Shown here one piece after another: positions 2,064-12,470 of a stretch of DNA of 12,502 bases. A program made the position numbers and the translations under genes. Source of the stretch: a virus (taxonomy: Duplodnaviria; Heunggongvirae; Uroviricota; Caudoviricetes); the IMG/VR virus record IMGVR_UViG_2541047430_000021. One strand, given 5' to 3'. Within the stretch, counting starts at the first letter, position 1; the number at the start of each line of letters is the position of its first letter. Below the pieces are notes generated by a model that saw nothing but the letters and a program-made list of their open reading frames with translations, had not been told where the DNA came from and searched no databases.

Positions 2064-2133
2064 TTAAGTGCGGGTGCGTTGAGGATGCCTGATTCATCAG
2101 AGGTGGCGAGGGATTTCTCCCTCGCCGGGTCTC

Positions 2134-2289
2134 TTACTCCTCAGGTTCGTAAGCTGTGAAGACAGCGACCTCCGTCTGGCCGGTTCGGATTCGTACCTCG
2201 CAGAGGTCTTTCCTCGTTACCAGTGCCGTCACTATGACGGTAATACAGATGACGATCAGGGCGATTAACATCGCCTTTTGCTGCTTCAT
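2134..2289 (-). CDS. hok: Hok-family type I toxin (51 aa membrane peptide)
   Basis: Translation MKQQKAMLIALIVICITVIVTALVTRKDLCEVRIRTGQTEVAVFTAYEPEE is near-identical to HokD/RelF as I recall it. AGGAG SD 9 nt upstream of ATG at 2289-2287. An in-frame upstream ATG at 2346 with its own GAGG SD could be a mok-like start. Confidence 0.9.
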   Translation of the reverse strand: MKQQKAMLIALIVICITVIVTALVTRKDLCEVRIRTGQTEVAVFTAYEPEE

Positions 2290-2338
2290 AGCCTGCTTCT
2301 CCTTGCCTTTCGGCGCGTAAGAGGCTAACCTACATGTG

Positions 2339-2410
2339 TCTAGCATGAAATTGGCCTCAGATTAATGTTAGGCGTCTTGCAGGACGCGTAATGTTAACTG
2401 GGGCTTTTCT
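2339..2410 (+). ncRNA. putative Sok-like antisense RNA (hypothesis)
   Basis: Plus-strand region antisense to the SD and ATG at 2346-2362. Candidate promoter TTGCCT(2304-2309)-17 nt-TAACCT(2327-2332). Hairpins at 2372-2387 (GCGTC-TTGCAG-GACGC) and CCUCAG...CUGGGG, followed by a U-rich tail CUUUUCUCU. Boundaries are inferred, not measured. Confidence 0.3.
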
Positions 2411-2464
2411 CTGTCTGCCTTACGGTGGCATGCCCGAGGCAGACAGCCTCAAGCACCCGCAGCA

Positions 2465-2754: not shown

Positions 2755-3399
2755 TCATTGGCGCACCTCCTGCGGCGGTTCTGGTAGCGGCATCCAGTCG
2801 GTTACATTGCGGCTCTGTGTTTCGAAAAATTCATCACCATTACGGACTACATCAAAAAACTCACCGTCTCGATATTGCGCATAAAGAACGAATGCGCCAT
2901 CACATAAAATAATTACGTGCTGACCATCATCCGGCATTCGCTCACTACAGCTTATCCAATCATCCAGAGTTACCGGATAGTTGGTTGACGTTTCCGAGAT
3001 TTCCCGAAAATTATTGGTTGACGAACCCTTTTTTTCCCGAAAGTTTCCAGCCTGAAGCATGGCGGCGCTGTCTGGCGGGGCAGCATATAGCGGCACGTAT
3101 ATTTCCGGTTCCTTATCAGCACCGGGTTGCTCTTCCAGTGAGAATGTCTTTCCGGTAAATCGATTCATATAAAGCACGGGCTCTGCTTCCAGCGAAGCCT
3201 GAGCAACAAGGGCCAGTGCTAAATCCAACTCAATTGCCTCGAGAGAATTTTTGAATGCTGTCTGTTTTACTGCAAATTTCATCGCCTTTACATTTTCACT
3301 AACATGACTGATTAACTGCTCTTTTGTAAAAGTGGTCATCTCATTCTCCTTTGATGCGAATGCCAGCGACAATTGAAGCCTGATAGCTAATTCACTCAC
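2755..3399 (-). CDS. DUF551-like prophage protein
   Basis: C-terminal W/P-rich region (DDWISCSERMPDDGQHVIILC...WMPLPEPP) resembles DUF551. GTG at 3399 overlaps the upstream stop (GTGA) with an AGGAGG SD; an alternative ATG at 3339 has an AAGGAG SD (194 aa). Confidence 0.65.
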   Translation of the reverse strand: MSELAIRLQLSLAFASKENEMTTFTKEQLISHVSENVKAMKFAVKQTAFKNSLEAIELDLALALVAQASLEAEPVLYMNRFTGKTFSLEEQPGADKEPEIYVPLYAAPPDSAAMLQAGNFREKKGSSTNNFREISETSTNYPVTLDDWISCSERMPDDGQHVIILCDGAFVLYAQYRDGEFFDVVRNGDEFFETQSRNVTDWMPLPEPPQEVRQ

Positions 3400-3791
3400 A
3401 GTACCGCCTCCTGAAAATTGCCCTGATAGAACGCCAGTACACGCAGCATAACTTCACTCTTCCGGCACTCGCCACAGATTATGTTCTGTTGTCTGTCGTA
3501 GCGGCGTATTTCTCCGTCTGGTAACTTTCGAATCAATGTCTGGTCGGTTGCTTTCTCCGCTGCCTTACGCCATACGCGATACACCTGTTCTGATGTAAAA
3601 ACACCGTATTTACCGGGCATGTATAAATCGCCACAAGCCAGTACATCCACAAGGCAACGTCTGACTGAATGCCAGCCTGCTCCCGTCGCTCTCTCCAGTT
3701 GTGATATCGTCATGCGTTCATTTTTGCGTACCAGCCCGATAATTCGGGCCTTCAGTTCTTCACGCTGTTCGTGTGTAAAAGGTTTCGCCAT
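3396..3791 (-). CDS. hypothetical prophage protein (131 aa) with HTH-like segment and CxxC motif
   Basis: ATG at 3791-3789 with GGAGG SD; translation contains MTISQLERATGAGWHSVRRCL and ICGEC. Confidence 0.65.
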   Translation of the reverse strand: MAKPFTHEQREELKARIIGLVRKNERMTISQLERATGAGWHSVRRCLVDVLACGDLYMPGKYGVFTSEQVYRVWRKAAEKATDQTLIRKLPDGEIRRYDRQQNIICGECRKSEVMLRVLAFYQGNFQEAVL

Positions 3792-3806
3792 AAGCGCCTC
3801 CGGCTA

Positions 3807-4576
3807 TCACTTTTCCGATACAACACGGCGGGAAGAATCAGTAATCTGTCGAACAATATCCCGGTGCTTGTTCAGCTCCCGCAGCGCGGCGCAGACTCGC
3901 TCCCACTTCTGAACATCACTTTTCGCCCTGCGCAGCGCCAGGTTTGCCCTGCGCAGGGACGGAAAAATCAGCTCATCTGCTTGCGTTTCGGTAAACGATG
4001 GCAACGGCTGCACAATGTCCGCCACAGTTTCTGTTTTAATTTCTTCCTGTGTTGCGGCTTCCCGGACTGGTAACGCAGCACCTGCTGGCTGAGGAAAGGC
4101 CTTACCATCATTTTTCGTTACCGGCGCGGCTTTCGGATCTGCTGGTAAATTACCCCCCGACATGCAGTAACGAAATTTACCGTTCTGATTAACGCGTGCC
4201 AGCCGCCCCGTTGCGGTTACCACCGCCAGCGTGGAAGCAACCTTGCGAGTACTGACGCCGAACTTACCCGCCAGTTCCTCACACGTTTTAGCACCATCCT
4301 GACCGATAAACTCAACCATCATGTCTGCGGTAACTTTTGGAGCGACCTCTTCGGTTACCACATCCGGCGCTTCAGGTTGTAGTGCCTGCCCTTCGGTTAC
4401 CCCGGCTTCACCTTCGACAGCCAGAAACCAGGTGTGACCCGTTTTATCAACAACGCCATTTTTTTGAGTTCCCACAGTTCGTTAAGAACTTCTTCACGGC
4501 TGATATCAAGCCGCGCCGCCAGTTCAACAGAATTGGCTTTTCCCATCGCTTTCAGTGCATGCAATACAGTTTCCAT
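3807..4576 (-). pseudogene. tandem winged-helix protein gene split by a frameshift at an A7 homopolymer
   Basis: Frame A: ATG 4576 (GAGGT SD), [39 protein letters not shown]..., stop after 59 aa at 4397. Frame B (-1) continues [14 protein letters not shown]... to 3807. The junction is the A7 run (plus 4459-4465). The second domain (VEFIGQDGAKTCEELAGKFGVSTRKVASTL...NQNGKFRY) repeats the pattern of the first across the shift. Confidence 0.6.
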
Positions 4577-4601
4577 CGAAAATTTACCTCGTCAAAAATT
4601 C

Positions 4602-5342
4602 TCACATACCCTGACGTCCAACGTTTGACCGCCAGCTCTCCCAGTTAAAATTCACCCAACGACCACCATTCATGGTCATACGGTCCATCACCCGATCTCC
4701 GAGGAGTGTGCTCATCGCTGCGTGATTCAGGTTCGTCAGCATTCCGACACTACGCATCGAAGCCGTTCTGCGGTCGACTATCTGGTTCAGCGTGACCTGC
4801 TCGTTGCGCGTATCCCGCTGCATGCCAATTTCATCAAGGACCAGAAGGTCAACTCCACAAAGCTCCTGTAAAAATTTTTCCCCGGACTGGCCGTTGTCGT
4901 AGCCGTCATGCAACACGCTCATGACATCGGACACGGTGACGATAATCACGCTTCTCCCCTTCGCCATCAGCCGATTGCCAATCGCTGCTGCCAGGTGATT
5001 TTTACCGGTACCAGGTTTACCGCTGAACACGAAGTTTGTACATCCGGTCATCAATTCATCGGCAATGGATTTCGCCTGGCTCAGAGCATGGCGCTGACCG
5101 TCGTTCTGCACCCGGTAGTTCCCGAATGAGCACTTCCTGTGAAGCGGCTGGATGCCCGCACGGTTCAGGATTTTTTCAACCCGCACCTGATGATTCAGGC
5201 GGTTAATCTCCTCGCTGCGTTTTCGTCCTTCAGCAAGTTGCCATTCCCGCCACTCCTCCACCGTCCGGTACGGTGGAACCGCCCCCTGTGGTGCAAGTCT
5301 GCGAATACGTTCAAGAACCCCAACTGCCGCAATGTTTTTCAT
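4602..5342 (-). CDS. DnaC/IstB-like AAA+ helicase loader (phage replication protein, YdaV-like)
   Basis: Walker A GKPGTGKNHLAAA and Walker B LLVLDEIG. ATG at 5342-5340 with GGGGGTGA SD. The 246-aa length matches Rac YdaV (from memory). Confidence 0.9.
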   Translation of the reverse strand: MKNIAAVGVLERIRRLAPQGAVPPYRTVEEWREWQLAEGRKRSEEINRLNHQVRVEKILNRAGIQPLHRKCSFGNYRVQNDGQRHALSQAKSIADELMTGCTNFVFSGKPGTGKNHLAAAIGNRLMAKGRSVIIVTVSDVMSVLHDGYDNGQSGEKFLQELCGVDLLVLDEIGMQRDTRNEQVTLNQIVDRRTASMRSVGMLTNLNHAAMSTLLGDRVMDRMTMNGGRWVNFNWESWRSNVGRQGM

Positions 5343-5348
5343 GACACG

Positions 5349-6311
5349 TCACCCCCTGAATCCCGGCGGTATTTCAGTGTCCGGTTCAGAAATGTGATTC
5401 ACGCAACGCTGCGCGGGCGAACGCCCCAGGCGGATAACCAGTTCATCCCATTTTTCCCGGAGTTTTGCCGGACTCATGATGTTTTTTACCCAGAACGAAT
5501 CCCGCTGGAGACGCCCAAACATTTCACAAATTTGTCTGTGAGTTCTGCCATCCAGCATCCGCATTGTCCGCACGTCATTGGCCCATGCAGTCCAGTTGGG
5601 TTCTTTCGGTCTCGTGATCTCGCCATCATCGCTGGCCGCCTGCTCGTAAAGACTCACGATTCGTCCCCAGATCCACTGTGCGCACACCAAATCTTCCTGA
5701 CTTCCCCACTGGCGTTTTTTCGCACTGAACACAACCGCGTCAGGGTGTCGGGTTAAAAAATTCTGTTCAGCCGTCTGCGGGTCCGGTTGCGAAGCGTCCG
5801 GACAAGAAGATCTTTTATCTGACGGATCAGGTTTTAATACTGACGGATCGGGGTCAATCATCGCCCCCCTAATCGGCAGTTTGTTATCAACAGTTGATCC
5901 ATCAAAATTTGACGGGTCAACCGTTGAGGGGGCAATATTTGACGGGTCAACTGTTAACGGGTCATTTTTTGCCGGGCTAATTTTTCTTTTCGGTTTATAT
6001 GACTCACGCGCCGCCGCAGCAGCTGCTTCGAGTTTTTCCACATTAAGCCGATAGATATTGCTTACATTACGCCCACCGACCTTACGCTCTTCCTTCGTCA
6101 GCCAGCCCTCTTTCGCCAGTTCTGCAATAGCCGATTTCACTGTGGATTCACTTCTTGCACCGATCTGACGCCGGATAGTTTCAATGGCAGGCCATGACAC
6201 GCCCTCGTCATTGCTGTAGTCTGCAAGACGGGCCATAACCGCCACCCTGGATAAGATCATGCCGGTGAAGGCGCACCCTTCCCAGACAAGACCATGAAGC
6301 TTGCTGCTCAT
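5349..6311 (-). CDS. replication initiator (O-like/YdaU-like) with N-terminal winged-helix domain
   Basis: N-terminus LHGLVWEGCAFTGMILSRVAVMARLADYSNDEGVSWPAIETIRRQIG...AIAELAKEGWL is an HTH typical of phage replication initiators. Lies immediately upstream of the DnaC-like gene. ATG at 6311; alternative GTG at 6326. Confidence 0.8.
   Translation of the reverse strand: MSSKLHGLVWEGCAFTGMILSRVAVMARLADYSNDEGVSWPAIETIRRQIGARSESTVKSAIAELAKEGWLTKEERKVGGRNVSNIYRLNVEKLEAAAAAARESYKPKRKISPAKNDPLTVDPSNIAPSTVDPSNFDGSTVDNKLPIRGAMIDPDPSVLKPDPSDKRSSCPDASQPDPQTAEQNFLTRHPDAVVFSAKKRQWGSQEDLVCAQWIWGRIVSLYEQAASDDGEITRPKEPNWTAWANDVRTMRMLDGRTHRQICEMFGRLQRDSFWVKNIMSPAKLREKWDELVIRLGRSPAQRCVNHISEPDTEIPPGFRG
5820..5965. 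repeat. iteron-like direct repeats (putative prophage origin) inside the initiator gene
   Basis: TGACGGATCAG (5820-5830), TGACGGATCGG (5841-5851), TGACGGGTCAA (5910-5920), TGACGGGTCAA (5940-5950), AACGGGTCAT (5956-5965); an AT-rich stretch follows at 5962-6000. They encode the repeated peptide DPLTVDPSNIAPSTVDPSNFDGSTVD. Confidence 0.55.
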
Positions 6312-7547: not shown

Positions 7548-7739
7548 ATGAATAGAGCCCTTTCACCAATGGTTTCTGAATTTGAAACCATTGAACAAGA
7601 AAACAGTTACAACGAATGGCTGCGTGCGAAAGTAGCAACGAGCCTTGCAGATCCGCGCCCAGCAATTCCCCATGACGAAGTTGAGCGCAGAATGGCAGAA
7701 CGCTTTGCTAAGATGCGCAAGGAACGGAGCAAGCAGTAA
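7548..7739 (+). CDS. paaA2: ParE-associated antitoxin (PaaA2-like, 63 aa)
   Basis: GGAGG SD 5 nt before ATG 7548; 63-aa product directly upstream of the ParE toxin gene (1-nt gap). Length and arrangement match my recollection of the three-component paaR2-paaA2-parE2 system; the symbol is assigned from memory. Confidence 0.7.
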   Translation: MNRALSPMVSEFETIEQENSYNEWLRAKVATSLADPRPAIPHDEVERRMAERFAKMRKERSKQ

Positions 7740-7740
7740 A

Positions 7741-8019
7741 ATGTTACCCGTGTTATGGCTTGAAAGCGCAGATACCGACCTAGATGATATAACTAGTTAT
7801 ATTGCTCGTTTCGACATAGATGCGGCTGAACGCTTATGGCAGCGATTAAGGGGTTGTGTGCTGCCGTTATCCGAACATCCGTATTTATACCCACCAAGCG
7901 ACAGAGTACCTGGCTTGCGTGAGATTGTAGCCCACCCTAACTATATAATTCTATACCGCGTAACAACATCAAGCGTTGAAGTAGTAAACGTGATCCACGC
8001 AAGACGCCAGTTTCCCTAA
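7741..8019 (+). CDS. parE2: ParE/RelE-superfamily toxin (92 aa)
   Basis: Translation MLPVLWLESADTDLDDITSYIARFDIDAAERLWQRLRGCVLPLSEHPYLYPPSDRVPGLREIVAHPNYIILYRVTTSSVEVVNVIHARRQFP shows the ParE/RelE pattern (PG-RE-V--P-YIILYRV----V-V--V-HARR). Confidence 0.85.
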   Translation: MLPVLWLESADTDLDDITSYIARFDIDAAERLWQRLRGCVLPLSEHPYLYPPSDRVPGLREIVAHPNYIILYRVTTSSVEVVNVIHARRQFP

Positions 8020-8449: not shown

Positions 8450-8650
8450 TTACTTCAGAAAGTCTCTGGTGAGTGCACCGAAGATATTGTCAACGATTTC
8501 GTCATCGAACTGCGAGGACTCATCTTCAGTTACAAGGTGACCACAATTTTTGCAGATGGCTCCCGCGAAACTGTCAGAGCCCTGCGGCTTAAAGGATGTG
8601 TCAAAGACTTCGCCACCACATTCTGGGCAAGAAAACTTGATTGTATTCAT
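8450..8650 (-). CDS. small zinc-ribbon protein (66 aa)
   Basis: ATG at 8650 with GAGGA SD 8 nt upstream; MNTIKFSCPECGGEVFDTSFKPQGSDSFAGAICKNCGHLV... carries two CxxC pairs. Oriented opposite to the surrounding early-left genes. Confidence 0.55.
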   Translation of the reverse strand: MNTIKFSCPECGGEVFDTSFKPQGSDSFAGAICKNCGHLVTEDESSQFDDEIVDNIFGALTRDFLK

Positions 8651-8742
8651 AACCAATTTCCTCTCGAGTAACAGACCCCTCAGAGGATACCACCTCGCCT
8701 GACGTGGTTAAAAGCAGGCAACGCTAACCACAAGGAGCCGAC

Positions 8743-8961
8743 ATGCAGAAACGAGAACCCGTCATCATCGCGCCAGACTATACCGATGATGAACTTTATG
8801 AGTGGATGCACCAGAAAATTAATGCAGCGCAGGATCTGAAATGGGCCAATGAAGCCAGGGCTAAGCAGGCTGAAAATCTGTCCGCTCTGGAGCAGGATAT
8901 CACCAATCTGGAAAAAGCAGCGGCATTAAGCATTGCCAGAATGATTACATACCCGCGTTAA
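8743..8961 (+). CDS. hypothetical early-left protein (72 aa)
   Basis: AAGGAG SD 5 nt before ATG 8743; translation MQKREPVIIAPDYTDDELYEWMHQKINAAQDLKWANEARAKQAENLSALEQ... is predicted helical. Confidence 0.6.
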   Translation: MQKREPVIIAPDYTDDELYEWMHQKINAAQDLKWANEARAKQAENLSALEQDITNLEKAAALSIARMITYPR

Positions 8962-9317
8962 TAGCTAACCAACGAAGCTAAGGTTGGTAATTAAGGAGTT
9001 CTCCACGGGTGAGGTGGAGTGCGTGCGCCGGACACGGGTGAGCATACGGCACTGACAGTTTACTGAAAGGATATTTCCCTGAAAAGTCAGACCATAACGC
9101 GAAAGCGCACGGCGAGGTAGCTGGTTCATAGATAGCCTGTCGTTAAATTTTCGTCGACCGTGCGCTTCCGGTTGTGGCAATCCGCGAAATGGCGCGGCGG
9201 TAAGTATGGAGGGGTTATTCCTTCCCCCGTTGAGGACACCGGGTTGTCAGGTTGACCATACGCTTAAGTGACAACCCCGCTGCAACGCCCTCTGTTATCA
9301 ATTTTCTGGTGACGTTT

Positions 9318-9360
9318 GGCGGTATCAGTTTTACTCCGTGACTGCTCTGCCGCCCTTTTT
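9318..9360 (+). terminator. terminator-like hairpin plus T5 run (tL-like), weak
   Basis: GGCGG (9318-9322) ... CCGCC (9350-9354) with inner CAG/CTG pairing, followed by TTTTT (9356-9360). The loop is long, so efficiency is uncertain. Confidence 0.3.
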
Positions 9361-9364
9361 AAAG

Positions 9365-9512
9365 TGAATTTTGTGATGCGGTGAATGCGGCTGAGCGCAC
9401 GCGGAACAGTTAAAACCAAAAACAGTGTTATGGGGGGATTCTCTGTATCCGGCGTTAATTGTTAACTGGTTAACGTCACCTGGAGGCACCAGGCACCGCA
9501 TCACAAAATTCA
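9365..9512. repeat. 19-bp perfect inverted repeat flanking a 110-bp spacer
   Basis: TGAATTTTGTGATGCGGTG (9365-9383) is the exact reverse complement of CACCGCATCACAAAATTCA (9494-9512). The spacer contains GTTAACTGGTTAAC. Confidence 0.8.
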
Positions 9513-9529
9513 TTGTTGAGGACGCGATA

Positions 9530-9718
9530 ATGGAAACGTTATTACCAAACGTTAATACGTCTGAAGGTTGTTTTGAAATTGGTGTCACTATCAGTAACCC
9601 TGTATTTACTGAAGATGCCATTAACAAGAGAAAACACGAACGGGAGCTATTAAATAAAATATGCATTCTTTCAATGCTGGCCCGTTTACGTCCGATACAA
9701 AAAGGATGCTGGCAATGA
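9530..9718 (+). CDS. hypothetical early-left protein (62 aa)
   Basis: GAGGA SD 7 nt before ATG 9530; stop TGA 9716-9718 overlaps the next start (ATGA). Confidence 0.5.
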   Translation: METLLPNVNTSEGCFEIGVTISNPVFTEDAINKRKHERELLNKICILSMLARLRPIQKGCWQ

Positions 9719-9906
9719 ATACAGCATTTGCACTTGTTCTGACAGTTTTTCTTGTTTCCGGAGAGCCAGTTGATATTGCAGTCAGTGTTCACAGGACAAT
9801 GCAGGAGTGTGTGACTGCAGCAACCGAACAGAAAATTCCCGGTAACTGTTACCCGGTCGATAAAGTTATTCACCAGGATAATAACGAAATCCCGGCAGGT
9901 CTTTAA
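9715..9906 (+). CDS. hypothetical small protein (63 aa) with signal-peptide-like N-terminus
   Basis: ATG 9715 with AAGGA SD 8 nt upstream; MNTAFALVLTVFLVSGEPVD... has a hydrophobic N-terminus and two Cys in the mature part. Confidence 0.5.
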   Translation: MNTAFALVLTVFLVSGEPVDIAVSVHRTMQECVTAATEQKIPGNCYPVDKVIHQDNNEIPAGL

Positions 9907-9998
9907 AACAGTTCCGTAATAAACATCCGATTTCATTCTTATATGCCAGCAATGGCAGGGATTTGTTCACCCTTAAATCTGTAATGAGGTAAAACAAA

Positions 9999-12470
9999 AT
10001 GAGTAAAGTCTTTATTTGCGCCGCCATTCCGGACGAACAGGCAATAAAGGAAGAAGGTGCCGTCGCTGTAGCCACTGCCATTGAAGCCGGTGATGAACGT
10101 CGCGCCCGCGCAAAATTTCACTGGCAATTCCTGGAACATTATCCGGCTGCTCAGGACTGCGCTTATAAATTTCTTGTTTGCGAGGATAAACCCGGTATAC
10201 CCCGCCCTGCCCTCGATTCCTGGGATGCTGAATATATGCAGGAAAACCGCTGGGATGAGGCGTCTGCTTCCTTTGTCCCGGTCGAGACTGAATCCGATCC
10301 GATGAACGTCACTTTTGACAACCTGGCCCCTGAAGTACAGAACGCTGTCATGGTTAAGTTCGACACATGTGAAAACATCACTGTTGATATGGTGATTAGC
10401 GCACAGGAATTGTTGCAGGAAGACATGGCAACATTCGACGGCCATATCGTTGAAGCGTTGATGAAAATGCCAGAAGTTAACGCTATGTATCCGGAGCTTA
10501 AGCTGCATGCCATCGGGTGGGTTAAGCATAAATGTAAGCCTGGTGCCAAATGGCCCGAAATTCAGGCAGAGATGCGCATCTGGAAAAAACGTCGCGAAGG
10601 TGAACGCAAGGAAGCCGGAAAATACACGTCTGTTGTTGATCTCGCCCGCGCCAGAGCCAATCAACAGCACACTGAAAATTCAACAGGAAAAATCAACCCG
10701 GTCATTGCTGCCATTCATCGCGAATACAAGCAGACATGGAAAACACTGGATGACGAACTGGCCTACGCTCTCTGGCCTGGTGATGTGGATGCCGGAAACA
10801 TTGACGGCAGCATCCATCGCTGGGCAAAAAATGAAGTTATCGACAACGGCCGCGAAGACTGGAAGCGTATCTCGGCATCAATGCGCAAACAGCCTGATGC
10901 CCTTCGCTACGACCGCCAGACTATTTTTGGCCTTGTCCGTGAACGTCCGATCGACATTCACAAAGACCCTGTGGCACTGAACAAATACATTACTGAATAC
11001 CTGACTACAAAGGGCGTGTTTGAAGATGAAGGAACAAATCAGAGCGCAACTGACACTCTCTCGTCGCCAGTACCAGAAACTGATGCAGTGGAAACGGCAA
11101 TTCCGGACAACGAAAAAACCGAATGCAAAGTGGAAGTCGAACCATCTGTAGAGCGTGAGGGGCCGTTCTACTTCCTCTTCACCGACAAGGATGGCGAAAA
11201 ATACGGTCGCGCAAACAAACTTTCTGGTCTGGATAAGGCGCTGGCTGCCGGGGCTACTGAAATCACAAAAGAAGAATATTTTGCCCGAAAAAATGGCACA
11301 TACACAGGCTTACCGCAAAATGCAAATACCGCACAAAATTCTGAACAACCAGAACCGGTAAAAGTTACCGCTGACGAAGTAAAGAAAATTATGCAGGCAG
11401 CCAATATCAGCCAGCCTGACGCCGAGGAACTGCTTGCAGTATCACGTGGTGAATTTGTTGAAGGGATTAGCGACCCGAATGATCCGAAATGGGTTAAGGG
11501 GATCCAGACCCGCGATTCTGTGAACCAGAACCAGCAAGAAACGGAACAGAACGACCAGAAAGCGGAACAAAACAGCCCAAATACGCAACAAAACGAGCCA
11601 GAAACGAAACAACCTGAACCAGTAGTGCAACAGGAACCGGAAAAGATCTGCACCGCCTGCGGTCAGAGCGGTGGCGGCAACTGCCCTGATTGTGGTGCGG
11701 TGATGGGTGACGCAACATACCAGGAAATATTCGATGGAGAGAATCAGCCTGAAGTTCAGGAAAATGATCCGGAGGAAATGGAAGGTACTGCACATCAGCA
11801 CAAGGAGAACACTGGCGGCAATCAGCATCATGCCAGCGATAGTGAAACTGGCGAGGCGTCAGATCCCTTAATTAAGGCGAACGGTCATCATAATCTCACA
11901 TCCACCAGCAGAGCGGGGATTCATCTGATGATCGATCTTGAAACCATGGGAAAAAATCCCGATGCCCCGATTATCTCAATAGGTGCAATATTTTTCGATC
12001 CGCAAACCGGAGATATGGGACCGGAATTTAGTAAGACTATCGATCTGGATACTGCTGGCGGAGTCATTGATCGGGACACCATGAAATGGTGGCTTAAACA
12101 ATCACGCGAAGCGCAATCTGCCATTATGACCGATGAAATCCCGTTAGATGATGCACTGTTACAATTGCGGGAATTTATCGACGAAAACTCCGGTGAATTT
12201 TTTGTTCATGTCTGGGGAAATGGAGCCAACTTCGACAACACGATTTTGCGCCGTTCATACGAACGGCAGGGGAGCCCCTGCCCGTGGCGTTACTACAACG
12301 ATCGCGATGTACGCACAATCGTTGAGCTGGGGAAAGCCATAGACTTCGATGCCAGAACGGCTATTCCATTCGAAGGTGAGCGCCATAATGCACTTGATGA
12401 CGCCCGTTACCAGGCAAAATACGTTTCAGCTATCTGGCAAAAACTGATCCCGAGTCAGGCTGATTTTTAA
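9999..12470 (+). CDS. prophage exonuclease (RecE position) with C-terminal DEDDh/DnaQ-like 3'-5' exonuclease domain
   Basis: 823-aa ORF with GAGG SD. C-terminus has the three DEDDh motifs: IDLETMG, VWGNGANFDNTIL, HNALDDARYQAKY. Internal CTACGQSGGGNCPDCG zinc-ribbon-like motif and a Q/E/N-rich low-complexity linker. Confidence 0.85.
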   Translation: MSKVFICAAIPDEQAIKEEGAVAVATAIEAGDERRARAKFHWQFLEHYPAAQDCAYKFLVCEDKPGIPRPALDSWDAEYMQENRWDEASASFVPVETESDPMNVTFDNLAPEVQNAVMVKFDTCENITVDMVISAQELLQEDMATFDGHIVEALMKMPEVNAMYPELKLHAIGWVKHKCKPGAKWPEIQAEMRIWKKRREGERKEAGKYTSVVDLARARANQQHTENSTGKINPVIAAIHREYKQTWKTLDDELAYALWPGDVDAGNIDGSIHRWAKNEVIDNGREDWKRISASMRKQPDALRYDRQTIFGLVRERPIDIHKDPVALNKYITEYLTTKGVFEDEGTNQSATDTLSSPVPETDAVETAIPDNEKTECKVEVEPSVEREGPFYFLFTDKDGEKYGRANKLSGLDKALAAGATEITKEEYFARKNGTYTGLPQNANTAQNSEQPEPVKVTADEVKKIMQAANISQPDAEELLAVSRGEFVEGISDPNDPKWVKGIQTRDSVNQNQQETEQNDQKAEQNSPNTQQNEPETKQPEPVVQQEPEKICTACGQSGGGNCPDCGAVMGDATYQEIFDGENQPEVQENDPEEMEGTAHQHKENTGGNQHHASDSETGEASDPLIKANGHHNLTSTSRAGIHLMIDLETMGKNPDAPIISIGAIFFDPQTGDMGPEFSKTIDLDTAGGVIDRDTMKWWLKQSREAQSAIMTDEIPLDDALLQLREFIDENSGEFFVHVWGNGANFDNTILRRSYERQGSPCPWRYYNDRDVRTIVELGKAIDFDARTAIPFEGERHNALDDARYQAKYVSAIWQKLIPSQADF

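Follow-up and report, generated by a model that had tools for sequence, protein, structure and literature searches.

The question raised by this locus is what is encoded by a stretch of about 570 nt that is strongly structured, lacks a convincing gene and carries a perfect inverted repeat near its end. The stretch covers positions 8962-9529 of the window, by which we mean the whole 12,502-nucleotide piece of phage DNA that was analysed. Its folding energy is far below that of shuffled sequences (z = -5.7 over the whole 574 nt). The prophage is Qin-like and belongs to E. coli O157:H7, and the ydfC-dicF-dicB spacer found in it is already known and well studied. Sequence identity of the region is 100% to O157:H7 chromosomes and 97.7-99% to K-12 Qin. 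Positions 8962-9529 are therefore the spacer that runs from ydfC through dicF to dicB in a lambdoid prophage of the Qin kind. Here the polycistronic dicBF transcript is very probably processed, with the 19-bp repeat lying within a second RNase III substrate, the helix P1. The preliminary description was right that this is a structured non-coding stretch, but DicF, ydfC and dicB were not recognised in it, so that a textbook locus was described as unknown.

The gene setting can be read from both ends. The 72-aa upstream neighbour is annotated as 'protein YdfC' in a RefSeq record of an O157:H7 genome with 100% identity. Downstream, Pfam PF05358 (DicB, E = 6e-37) matches residues 36-97 of the ORF at 9425-9718, which places the dicB start at the internal ATG at 9530; the RefSeq annotation is likewise dicB. 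This gene is followed by ydfD and an exonuclease gene, in an operon of the early-left type. The order ydfC, dicF, dicB, ydfD is that of the dicF locus of K-12 Qin (Faubladier, Cam & Bouché 1990; Balasubramanian 2016; Ragunathan 2023), which also shares the two long helices and the terminator. Differences from K-12 are that relBE and a zinc-binding gene stand upstream in place of ydfA/ydfB, and that the P1 arms are fully Watson-Crick paired in the window, whereas two changes in K-12 (C9379U and C9497U) give two adjacent G·U pairs. The promoter dicBp is located between dicA and ydfA. The 5' part of the spacer is mosaic. In Qin-type copies it is structured and helps to make the folding energy of the region low, and together with ydfC it is swapped or missing in other DicF-bearing phages, with the junction at the motif GTGGTTAAAAGCAGG (window position 8704). 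The features to which the following discussion refers are listed here.

8743-8961, plus strand: ydfC, 72 aa, upstream neighbour (ORF list and RefSeq)
8962-9091, plus strand: mosaic, variable and structured 5' part of the spacer
9092-9177, plus strand: hairpin 1, the helix for upstream processing by RNase III (fold and arms), with basal helix 9093-9115 / 9154-9176 and a variable apical loop
9166-9302, plus strand: leader of the 190-nt pre-DicF RNA, with hairpins at 9182-9197 and about 9208-9228 and hairpin 2
9241-9277, plus strand: hairpin 2, GGGUUGUCA / UGACAACCC, arms 9241-9249 / 9269-9277
9298-9306, plus strand: RNase E cleavage region AUCAAU/UUUCUGG, cut at 9302/9303 as mapped from the K-12 annotation
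9303-9360, plus strand: DicF sRNA, with 53-nt core 9303-9355, terminator stem 9318-9322 / 9350-9354 and U-run 9356-9360
9363-9514, plus strand: STnc100/PasD-type RNA domain with helices P1-P5, in the spacer and dicB 5' UTR (Rfam, covariance model and fold)
9363-9383, plus strand: 5' strand of P1, holding the left repeat arm 9365-9383; putative RNase III cut at about 9374/9375
9407-9413, plus strand: segment X (CAGUUAA), with its complement in the P4 loop (UUAACUG, 9462-9468)
9451-9460 / 9468-9477, plus strand: P4 hairpin, 8 of 10 pairs doubly changed
9479-9483 / 9489-9493, plus strand: P5 hairpin with loop AGGCA; one pair switches between G-C (28 sequences) and U-A (27)
9494-9514, plus strand: 3' strand of P1, holding the right repeat arm 9494-9512; staggered RNase III cut expected at about 9504/9505
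9518-9522, plus strand: dicB Shine-Dalgarno sequence GAGGA
9530-9718, plus strand: dicB coding sequence

The middle of the spacer is occupied by the small RNA DicF. Positions 9303-9360 are identical to K-12, including dicF (100%) and the seed of the characterised DicF, and the K-12 dicF annotation (1649382-1649434) maps to 9303-9355. Rfam model RF00039 matches 9304-9355 with 76.7 bits (gathering score 48) over model positions 1-52 of 52. The pairing of GGCGG (9318-9322) with CCGCC (9350-9354), followed by U5 (9356-9360), constitutes the Rho-independent terminator of DicF; this hairpin had been noted before with the right coordinates as GGCGG...CCGCC plus T5. A simple consensus terminator scan, which is uninformative here, missed it owing to a loop of more than 8 nt, and the scan gave no promoter on the plus strand. 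In K-12, DicF binds Hfq and represses ftsZ and other mRNAs. Its action blocks FtsZ synthesis and alters sugar metabolism, and in EHEC it activates the virulence regulator PchA.

Processing of DicF has been studied in K-12, where the 5' end of the 53-nt form is made by RNase E and its 3' end lies at the terminator. A 190-nt precursor, detected by Northern blotting and dependent on RNase III as well as on RNase E, has a 5' end made by RNase III, while a 72-nt species derived from the full-length mRNA has a 3' end made by RNase III. The corresponding sites in the window were placed by means of secondary sources and size arithmetic, which gives an accuracy of about ±3 nt and assumes a common numbering origin. 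Counting 137 nt upstream from the start of DicF then puts the 5' end of the 190-nt precursor at about 9166, within the hairpin-1 helix and on its 3' strand. The 3' end of the 72-nt species (9303 + 71) falls at 9374, which is position 12 of the 21-bp P1 helix and the centre of the 19-bp left arm. The published '1,146-nt ydfABC-dicF' species would end at about 9498 in the right arm if it is on the 813/814 cleavage scale; with dicBp positioned between dicA and ydfA, this species must end past the DicF terminator. Table S1 of Gordon 2017 lists a difference in coverage between an rnc mutant and the wild type both for dicF-dicB and for kilR-sieB. For dicF-dicB, which the authors mark as a site already known, the coverage is 26 reads in the rnc mutant and zero in the wild type. 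The mutant/wild-type ratio peaks at about 9391, 8 nt beyond the left arm, in data that are coarse (sites at least 400 bp apart).

The two upstream hairpins fit into this scheme. A hairpin at 9106-9166 was part of the preliminary description and is indeed present as hairpin 1, which by transfer from K-12 holds the RNase III cut for the 190-nt precursor. Its perfect arms (9100-9112 / 9158-9170) belong to a longer RNA helix (about 22 bp), which is interrupted by a single bulge and a single 1x1 loop. Among 42 distinct sequences the basal helix is 93-100% paired; changes are one-sided and mostly to U·G, and the loop varies. The leader at 9166-9302 is nearly invariant among 98 distinct DicF loci. 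Hairpin 2 within it is also real, with arms that are complementary at 9 of 9 positions and paired in the MFE fold, although its true end is 9277 and the end first given (9279) is 2 nt too far. It adjoins the RNase E site on the upstream side, is almost invariant in relatives, and could set a structural limit to cutting by RNase E. Despite this conservation neither hairpin shows compensatory changes among relatives.

The 19-bp inverted repeat is where the locus becomes less familiar. The arms at 9365-9383 and 9494-9512 are complementary at 19 of 19 positions around a spacer of 110 nt, just as had been reported. When the whole window was shuffled 200 times with its dinucleotides preserved, the longest perfect inverted repeat measured 11.1 nt on average and never exceeded 17 nt, so the repeat is beyond chance. 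As RNA, the pairs A9363-U9514 and G9364·U9513 extend the helix to the 21 bp of P1, with the 19-bp Watson-Crick repeat inside. P1 is 95.4% paired in 23 distinct kil-linked relatives, with 13 of 21 pairs doubly changed, while slid registers are only 36-47% paired. Arm variants linked to dicB are nearly all wobble-compatible or compensatory, and the G·U wobbles fit the plus strand only. Independent arm sequences with helices of 17-22 bp occur in six relatives (L014, L020, L302, L308, L269 and L075), and identical arms are found upstream of dicB genes whose products share only 55-63% identity with the DicB of the window. A few natural variants carry mismatches in P1, namely the L152 type with A9368·C9509 (9 instances) and also L188 and L180. 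The arm pairing, the strand-specific wobbles and the covariation indicate that the repeat is an RNA helix and not a DNA site, and the check for covariation across related prophages that had been proposed gave a P1 that is kept paired by compensatory and wobble changes. P1 (21 bp) and the hairpin-1 helix (about 22 bp) both have the length of about two turns, or some 20 bp of double-stranded RNA, that characterises an RNase III site. Most likely the repeat forms a stem that is cut by RNase III and parts DicF from the dicB message.

In view of the above, the following order of events is probable. By homology to the K-12 experiments, RNase III would cut the hairpin-1 helix at about 9166 to give the 190-nt precursor, RNase E would cut at 9302/9303 to form the DicF 5' end, and the terminator at 9318-9360 would stop most transcripts and yield the 53-nt sRNA. 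Transcripts that read through would fold the 152-nt STnc100-type domain, and its 21-bp closing helix P1 would be the second RNase III substrate. Cuts near 9374/9375 and 9504/9505, the latter placed by the rule of a 2-nt 3' overhang, would leave three products, namely the DicF species of 72 nt, an RNA of about 130 nt that comprises the domain with 9 bp of P1 remaining, and a dicB mRNA of its own that begins with a leader of some 25 nt. Cleavage of P1 would in this way uncouple the DicF sRNA from the toxic dicB message. The published 53-, 72- and 190-nt species map onto the structures listed beforehand, each of which has its counterpart in a published step of DicF biogenesis. Of the interpretations first offered, those of a structured leader, an sRNA and a processing or termination element agree with this, as the region consists of DicF, its terminator and two RNase III helices. 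The absence of discrete transcript ends and of conserved structure had been named as what would speak against such readings; discrete ends are published for K-12, and both structure and repeat are conserved in related prophages and inducible phages.

The sequence enclosed by the repeat is itself structured. The 152-nt domain bounded by the repeat has a fold z-score of -6.7 relative to shuffles. Rfam model RF02076 (STnc100) matches 9353-9562 over its full length with 39.7 bits, which is under the gathering score of 47, at E = 4e-7. A covariance model built from 60 main-type domains only matches 9375-9502 with 72.9 bits (E about 2e-17). For comparison, RF02076 gives 67-90 bits with the main-type relatives and 47.8 bits with one kil-type relative (L015), while the Rfam scan gave no match in a relative from an Stx2c phage (L317). 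Covariation backs P1, P4 and P5. A near-invariant core motif, CACCNGGAGGCACCNGGCACC, at 9477-9497 is present in at least 120 loci across Enterobacterales. In P2 the window has the variant GCGGCUGAGCGCACGCGG, where the family has CCCCC...GGGG with loop UNNGCGG; cmscan flags non-standard pairs at this point, and the variant is common to the whole subgroup. The 3' third of the RF02076 model aligns to the ribosome-binding site and start codon of dicB. The window copy has no 3' terminator of its own after the domain, and the dicB ribosome-binding site follows directly. A tRNA-like reading, based on a 7-bp P1 and a 5-bp P5 abutting it, was considered and dropped, as there is neither a T-loop nor a CCA; ARAGORN, applied to the 200 nt downstream of each domain, found genuine flanking tRNAs only.

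Segment X and the P4 loop may form a pseudoknot that the Rfam consensus line displayed by cmscan does not contain. With narrow anchored windows in the 60 main-type domains, Watson-Crick helices between cognate segments are longer than those between non-cognate ones (mean 5.23 versus 3.64), and helices of at least 6 bp are found in 40% of cognate but 5% of non-cognate combinations. A test with broad windows was not convincing (helix length 7.0 for real and 6.07 for control). Within the kil-linked subtype both segments are invariant.

Like STnc100 and PasD of EPEC/EHEC prophages, the window domain is prophage-associated and has a P1 closed by GGUG/CACC, the helices P4 and P5 with a putative P2, and the CACCNGGAGGCACCNGGCACC core. 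It differs from STnc100 in the P2 variant (AAUGCGGCUNAGCGCACGCGG instead of AAUCCCCCUNNGCGGNGGGGC), in the length of P1 (21 bp against the 6-10 bp usual for the family), in having an mRNA start instead of a 3' seed or terminator, and in being embedded in an operon directly behind another sRNA. A parallel in gene order is the cryptic prophage Rac of K-12, where the KilS sRNA (b4833; Bar et al. 2021), an STnc100-type domain and kilR follow each other as DicF, the domain and dicB do in the window. KilS has a DicF-like terminator (GGCGGCAUCAG...CUGAUGUCCGCCCUUUUU), the left arm of its domain is identical to that of the window, and kilR is, like dicB, a small gene for an FtsZ inhibitor located after the domain. 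However, the sRNA body and seed of KilS differ from those of DicF, the payload is kilR, and the Rac P1 consists of 10 bp, a 1-nt bulge and 9 bp including a G·U, where the window has 21 continuous pairs. An own promoter has been suggested for KilS. In the type of payload a further regularity is seen. Where a Shine-Dalgarno sequence and an ORF follow within about 15-45 nt, P1 is long, with a median arm duplex energy of -31.7 kcal/mol against -17.5 kcal/mol where a terminator follows in the same subtype, a statistic that is dominated by closely related dicB copies.

Helices of about 20 bp that are cut by RNase III within a polycistronic transcript are well known from phage and host, as in the N leader, cIII and sib of the early-left operon of lambda and the intergenic sites of rpsO-pnp and metY-nusA, where cleavage separates functional RNAs and resets the fate of the downstream message. 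These sites have no homology to the window P1 in sequence or structure, but the way of working would be alike. A difference is that the window helix closes a conserved complex domain and not a simple hairpin.

On these grounds we tentatively suggest that the spacer may be a cis-embedded, deeply conserved and possibly pseudoknotted STnc100/PasD domain, a modular 5' cassette that enterobacterial prophages would reuse before sRNA bodies, tRNAs and toxin genes. Before kil-type genes (dicB, kilR and others) its closing helix would have been extended from about 7-9 to about 21 bp, making it an RNase III-gated insulator that uncouples sRNA and toxin output and releases a functional RNA of about 130 nt. 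A somewhat less probable option, compatible with the processing scheme described above, is that the domain is mainly the gene for a stable RNA of the STnc100/PasD kind that acts in trans or autonomously; the long P1 would then only excise it, and effects on DicF and dicB would be by-products. This would be in agreement with the main-type relatives, which are stand-alone Rfam STnc100 sRNAs in the same 67-90 bit range and often have their own terminator, and with the literature on PasD and STnc100, which bind Hfq and have RIL-seq targets. It would also account for a core that is extremely conserved across genera and maybe pseudoknotted, and for a predicted RNase III product whose 9-bp P1 has the usual family length. 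However, the window copy has no 3' part with seed and terminator, no spacer RNA of about 130 nt is reported in the literature examined, and the zero reads of the wild type against 26 of the rnc mutant suggest decay after cleavage and not accumulation. We consider it rather unlikely that the domain mainly serves cis control of dicB translation, with a weak helix next to P1, stacking on it, that would sequester the Shine-Dalgarno sequence until RNase III cuts or binds, as in lambda N and cIII. Partition-function folding does give a probability of being unpaired for GAGG (9518-9521) of 0.02-0.12 in the read-through transcript, which rises to 0.35-0.67 once the predicted cut is made, P1 is long in those copies that are closely followed by a Shine-Dalgarno sequence and ORF, and RNase III is known from the literature to act on lambda cIII translation. 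Yet the predicted opening is modest, the same calculation for Rac kilR yields no opening after cleavage, the proposed anti-Shine-Dalgarno partner overlaps the DicF terminator stem, and the payload statistic leans on closely related dicB copies.

Two further explanations are very improbable. The repeat could be a DNA element, either for looping or CRP binding or as the terminal repeats of a decayed miniature mobile element, as the preliminary description considered. A perfect 19-bp repeat around some 110 bp with TGTGA/TCACA in its arms invites this idea, and the block 9350-9514 is also found upstream of kilR and on P1-like plasmids. These other contexts are, however, homologous operon positions or STnc100 genes and not random insertion sites; variants break the DNA symmetry yet keep the RNA pairing through plus-strand G·U; and the sequence between the arms is an RNA domain of several helices that covary. 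The CRP-like half sites exist as letters, but TGTGA (9372-9376) and TCACA (9501-9505) are 124 nt apart where the consensus has a spacer of 6, and they are simply parts of the arms. Their spacing and the strand-specific wobble pairs likewise leave long-range looping without support. With respect to a MITE, the search for further copies that had been advised found the arm in the window only at its two sites, even with 3 mismatches (0 expected by chance), and AAAG and TTGT, which flank the repeat, form no direct repeat, so there is no target-site duplication; a conserved covarying domain at the same operon position in the loci examined gives no support to the relic of a small mobile element. Equally remote is a hidden small protein gene, either the 'hypothetical protein' of RefSeq on the minus strand at 8965-9129 (WP_001331716.1, in a few genomes) or a 97-aa in-frame extension of dicB. 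ORFs of 51-201 aa do exist on both strands, but the start of the DicB domain coincides exactly with the internal ATG at 9530, the place is without annotation in most RefSeq records, and conservation follows RNA helices and not codons. The ORFs of at least 40 aa on the minus strand at 8965-9180, 9264-9419 and 9331-9936 have no Pfam match, and the original statement that the region has no convincing ORF holds.

The locus serves mostly as a calibration, as a reader without tools rightly singled out the region of DicF processing for its unusual degree of structure. What is modestly new is the STnc100 homology of the spacer, a closing-helix length that tracks the downstream payload, and the possible pseudoknot. 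Together with the KilS-kilR parallel these points may guide work on how dosing of the DicB and KilR toxins is set against the upstream sRNA, and they also bear on the role of the widespread STnc100/PasD domain.

The window belongs to a lambdoid prophage carried by E. coli O157:H7. Many O157:H7 chromosomes are 100% identical to it over the 568 nt at 8962-9529, and 4725 out of 5426 complete E. coli genomes contain matches to this stretch, at a median of two places per genome. One identical RefSeq record places the stretch between 'protein YdfC' and 'cell division inhibition protein DicB', with ydfD and an exonuclease gene further on. A scan of the whole window at Rfam gathering thresholds found two RNAs, sok and DicF. 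These and other features are:

2284-2458, minus strand: sok (Rfam RF01794, 116.9 bits)
~7548-8019, plus strand: relB/relE toxin-antitoxin pair
8450-8650, minus strand: 'ECs_2282 family zinc-binding' gene
8965-9129, minus strand: 54-aa ORF, 'hypothetical protein' WP_001331716.1 in a few RefSeq genomes
9304-9355, plus strand: DicF (Rfam, 76.7 bits; gathering score 48; full model length)
9331-9936, minus strand: 201-aa ORF, antisense to dicB-ydfD
9999-12470, plus strand: intact exonuclease ORF, 823 aa

The K-12 MG1655 sequence aligns to the window with 97.7-99% identity, and its annotated dicF (1649382-1649434) equals window 9303-9355 without a difference. Together with the Rfam match, this identifies the hairpin of GGCGG (9318-9322) and CCGCC (9350-9354) plus T5 (9356-9360) as the DicF terminator and the stretch as the ydfC-dicF-dicB spacer, a region already established as the site of DicF processing. 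The dicB gene begins at 9530 (within the 9425-9718 ORF, Pfam DicB covers residues 36-97), and the absence of a convincing ORF from the spacer was borne out, as every ORF except that of dicB was without a Pfam match. The 201-aa and 54-aa ORFs, which likewise have none, overlap conserved RNA structure and are probably spurious. The sok gene lies in a hok/sok type I toxin-antitoxin locus (2131-2458, minus strand), with hokD annotated in the identical record. The exonuclease gene is whole, whereas strain TR01 has it broken by an IS1203 insertion. K-12 Qin carries ydfA/ydfB where the window has relB/relE and the zinc-binding gene, so the promoter for ydfC-dicF-dicB is not obvious in this prophage.

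Three sources that cite Faubladier et al. 1990 for DicF biogenesis (Balasubramanian et al. 2016, Ragunathan et al. 2023 and a 2022 review) describe an RNase III cut of the polycistronic dicBF transcript that gives a 190-nt species, formation of the 5' end of 53-nt DicF by RNase E, Rho-independent termination at its 3' end, and a further RNase III cut of full-length mRNA that gives a 72-nt DicF. Published sizes were converted to window coordinates by arithmetic, which is good to about ±3 nt. The 190-nt species would then begin at 9166, 137 nt upstream of 9303, inside the 3' strand of a hairpin at 9092-9177 (hairpin 1) whose predicted RNA fold is a ~22-bp helix (9093-9115 / 9154-9176) interrupted by one bulge and one 1x1 loop. 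The 72-nt DicF would end at 9374, position 12 of the 21-bp repeat helix. Since the dicBp promoter lies between dicA and ydfA, the published '1,146-nt ydfABC-dicF' species must end past the DicF terminator; on the scale that places the upstream cut at '813/814', its end falls near 9498, in the right arm. In RNA-seq of wild type and an rnc mutant (Gordon 2017), a dicF-dicB entry at K-12 1649470 (~window 9391), flagged by the authors as a known site, has 26 reads in the mutant and 0 in the wild type; a kilR-sieB entry is in the same table. RNase III cleavage in hairpin 1, RNase E cleavage at 9302/9303 and termination at 9356-9360 to yield DicF have been shown in K-12 and are transferable to the window by identity.

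All hairpins and the repeat listed in the preliminary description are present, although hairpin 2 (9241-9277) ends at 9277. Folding is stronger than in shuffles (z = -5.7 for 8962-9535, -6.7 for 9363-9514). Among 98 distinct DicF loci, hardly any variation is seen in the basal helix of hairpin 1 or in the entire 190-nt leader with hairpin 2, and the apical loop of hairpin 1 varies freely. Changes in these upstream stems are one-sided and mostly to U·G; the stems show conservation, not covariation. The first ~125 nt of the spacer (8962-9088) and ydfC form a mosaic block missing from some DicF phages. They act as an optional cassette (8685-8722 and 8962-9088), and in other DicF phages the sequence ending in CCTGACGTGGTTAAAAGCAGG (window 8704) directly abuts hairpin 1.

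The inverted repeat (9365-9383 / 9494-9512) is complementary at 19 of 19 positions and longer than any repeat obtained when the window was shuffled 200 times with dinucleotides preserved (longest repeat per shuffle: mean 11.1, maximum 17). It is an RNA helix, P1, of 21 bp (9363-9383 / 9494-9514). The K-12 arms differ by C9379U and C9497U, which give two adjacent G·U pairs on the plus strand; read on the opposite strand, they would leave C·A mismatches. Viral and genome collections supplied ~100 distinct copies linked to dicB, in which arm variants C9379U, C9497U, C9496U and A9495G are all wobble-compatible, C9379U with G9498A is a compensatory pair, and only a few copies have a mismatch. Long helices are kept in lineages of quite different arm sequence (22 bp in the relative loci L014 from Lelliottia, L020 from Scandinavium and L302; 17 bp in L308; 10 bp, a bulge and 11 bp in L269; 19 bp with one mismatch in L075). 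The expectation of conserved structure in related prophages thus held: in an alignment of 23 distinct long-stem elements P1 is 95.4% paired with both-sided changes at 13 of 21 pairs, a covariation reached by none of 500 shuffles, and registers slid by 1-3 columns pair at only 36-47%. Identical arms stand before DicB proteins sharing only 34-39 of 62 residues with that of the window, so the helix is better conserved than the gene downstream.

In a permissive Rfam scan, 9353-9562 aligns with the entire RF02076 (STnc100) model, whose outer stem coincides with the inverted repeat, at 39.7 bits (gathering score 47, E = 4e-7). The 3' terminator that the family has of its own is missing from the spacer, which accounts for the score below threshold. 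At least 120 loci across Enterobacterales carry the core motif CACCNGGAGGCACCNGGCACC, the majority being bona fide STnc100 (67-90 bits). A covariance model built from 60 such main-type domains only matches window 9375-9502 at 72.9 bits, and K-12 Qin, Rac and five other elements before kil-type genes at 64-76 bits. Covariation in 55 sequences backs P1 and the inner helices P4 and P5, one P5 pair alternating cleanly between G-C (28) and U-A (27). The full-length alignment, the model match and the covariation make the spacer a divergent domain of the STnc100/PasD family. STnc100 and PasD are prophage-associated Hfq-binding sRNAs of unknown function according to the STnc100 literature, and the STnc100 papers cited do not link them to DicF. 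A candidate pseudoknot would pair 9407-9413, just after helix P2, with 9462-9468 in the P4 hairpin loop. In 60 STnc100-type domains these segments are complementary and covary, e.g. ACTGGATA/TATCCAGT and GAGCCACAA/TTGTGGCTT, with at least six Watson-Crick pairs in 40% of cognate versus 5% of non-cognate combinations; the candidate is absent from the Rfam STnc100 consensus line of cmscan.

STnc100-type domains also alternate with tRNA genes in the tRNA arrays of prophages and phage-plasmids, at the loci L083 (Citrobacter braakii, 3717-5512), L004 (P1-like plasmid, 3034-4121) and L092, where a tRNA in places begins a few nt past P1. Another prophage cluster of structured RNAs is found in Shigella flexneri (L024, 2995-3424), where isrK (61.5 bits) and C4 antisense RNA (75.7 bits) lie within 250 nt downstream of a kil-type long-stem domain.

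Over 217 distinct domains P1 usually measures 6-10 bp. Domains of the GCGGCU subtype with a Shine-Dalgarno/ORF within ~15-45 nt (dicB, kilR and others; 85 distinct) have a median contiguous P1 of 21 bp and a median arm duplex energy of -31.7 kcal/mol; the subtype before a terminator has 9 bp and -17.5 kcal/mol, and main-type domains have -13 to -15 kcal/mol. Before phylogenetic correction, closing-helix length tracks the downstream payload. Related dicB copies predominate in the sample, and the association depends on about 8-10 independent arm lineages.

K-12 Rac (L125 480-1120, minus strand) carries the annotated sRNA KilS (b4833) in the place of DicF, with a terminator homologous to that of DicF; L003 4001-4187 has the same arrangement. 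It is followed by an STnc100-type domain whose left arm is identical to that of the window and whose right arm has one bulge and one G·U, and then by kilR, an FtsZ inhibitor gene, instead of dicB. As the terminators are homologous and the same domain precedes kilR, KilS-kilR and DicF-dicB look like paralogous modules; the KilS paper (Bar et al. 2021) does not mention DicF. The leader at 9171-9278 (upstream RNase III cut to hairpin 2) reappears in the Stx2c phage LC727877.1 (L317, 1201-1365), the cdtI phage and others, where it is not accompanied by DicF. The L317 copy precedes a different DicF-like terminator hairpin (GGCGGUACCAG...CUGGUACCGCUAUUUUU) without a match to an Rfam family, and may be an unnamed DicF-like sRNA.

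In view of the above, read-through transcripts would fold the STnc100-type domain, and RNase III would cleave P1 at about 9374/9375 and, given its usual 2-nt stagger, at about 9504/9505. This would release DicF-72, a ~130-nt domain RNA that still has 9 bp of P1, and a dicB mRNA beginning with a ~25-nt leader. Two further roles are possible and compatible with this processing. The excised domain RNA could have an autonomous function, or the domain could control translation: in the window a predicted Shine-Dalgarno-masking helix opens after cleavage, but the same opening was not found in Rac.

The suggested structured leader, sRNA, and processing or termination element fit the DicF processing region; long-range looping and a mobile-element relic fail. 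The CRP-like pentamers exist, yet their spacing of 124 nt does not suit a CRP site, and the arm has no further copy in the window with up to 3 mismatches, contrary to MITE-like behaviour. These DNA-level readings are contradicted by the spacing, by wobble pairs that fit one strand only, by the distribution of copies and by the missing target duplication, and hidden ORFs found no support.

The processing region itself being known, what is added is minor: homology of the spacer to STnc100, the relation of helix length to payload, the candidate pseudoknot and the KilS/DicF parallel. The shared layout makes 'sRNA, long-stem domain, division-inhibitor gene' a conserved module of early-left operons, present also in inducible phages, among them PhiR42_1, vB_EcoS-640R1, Evi and the PPompW phages.
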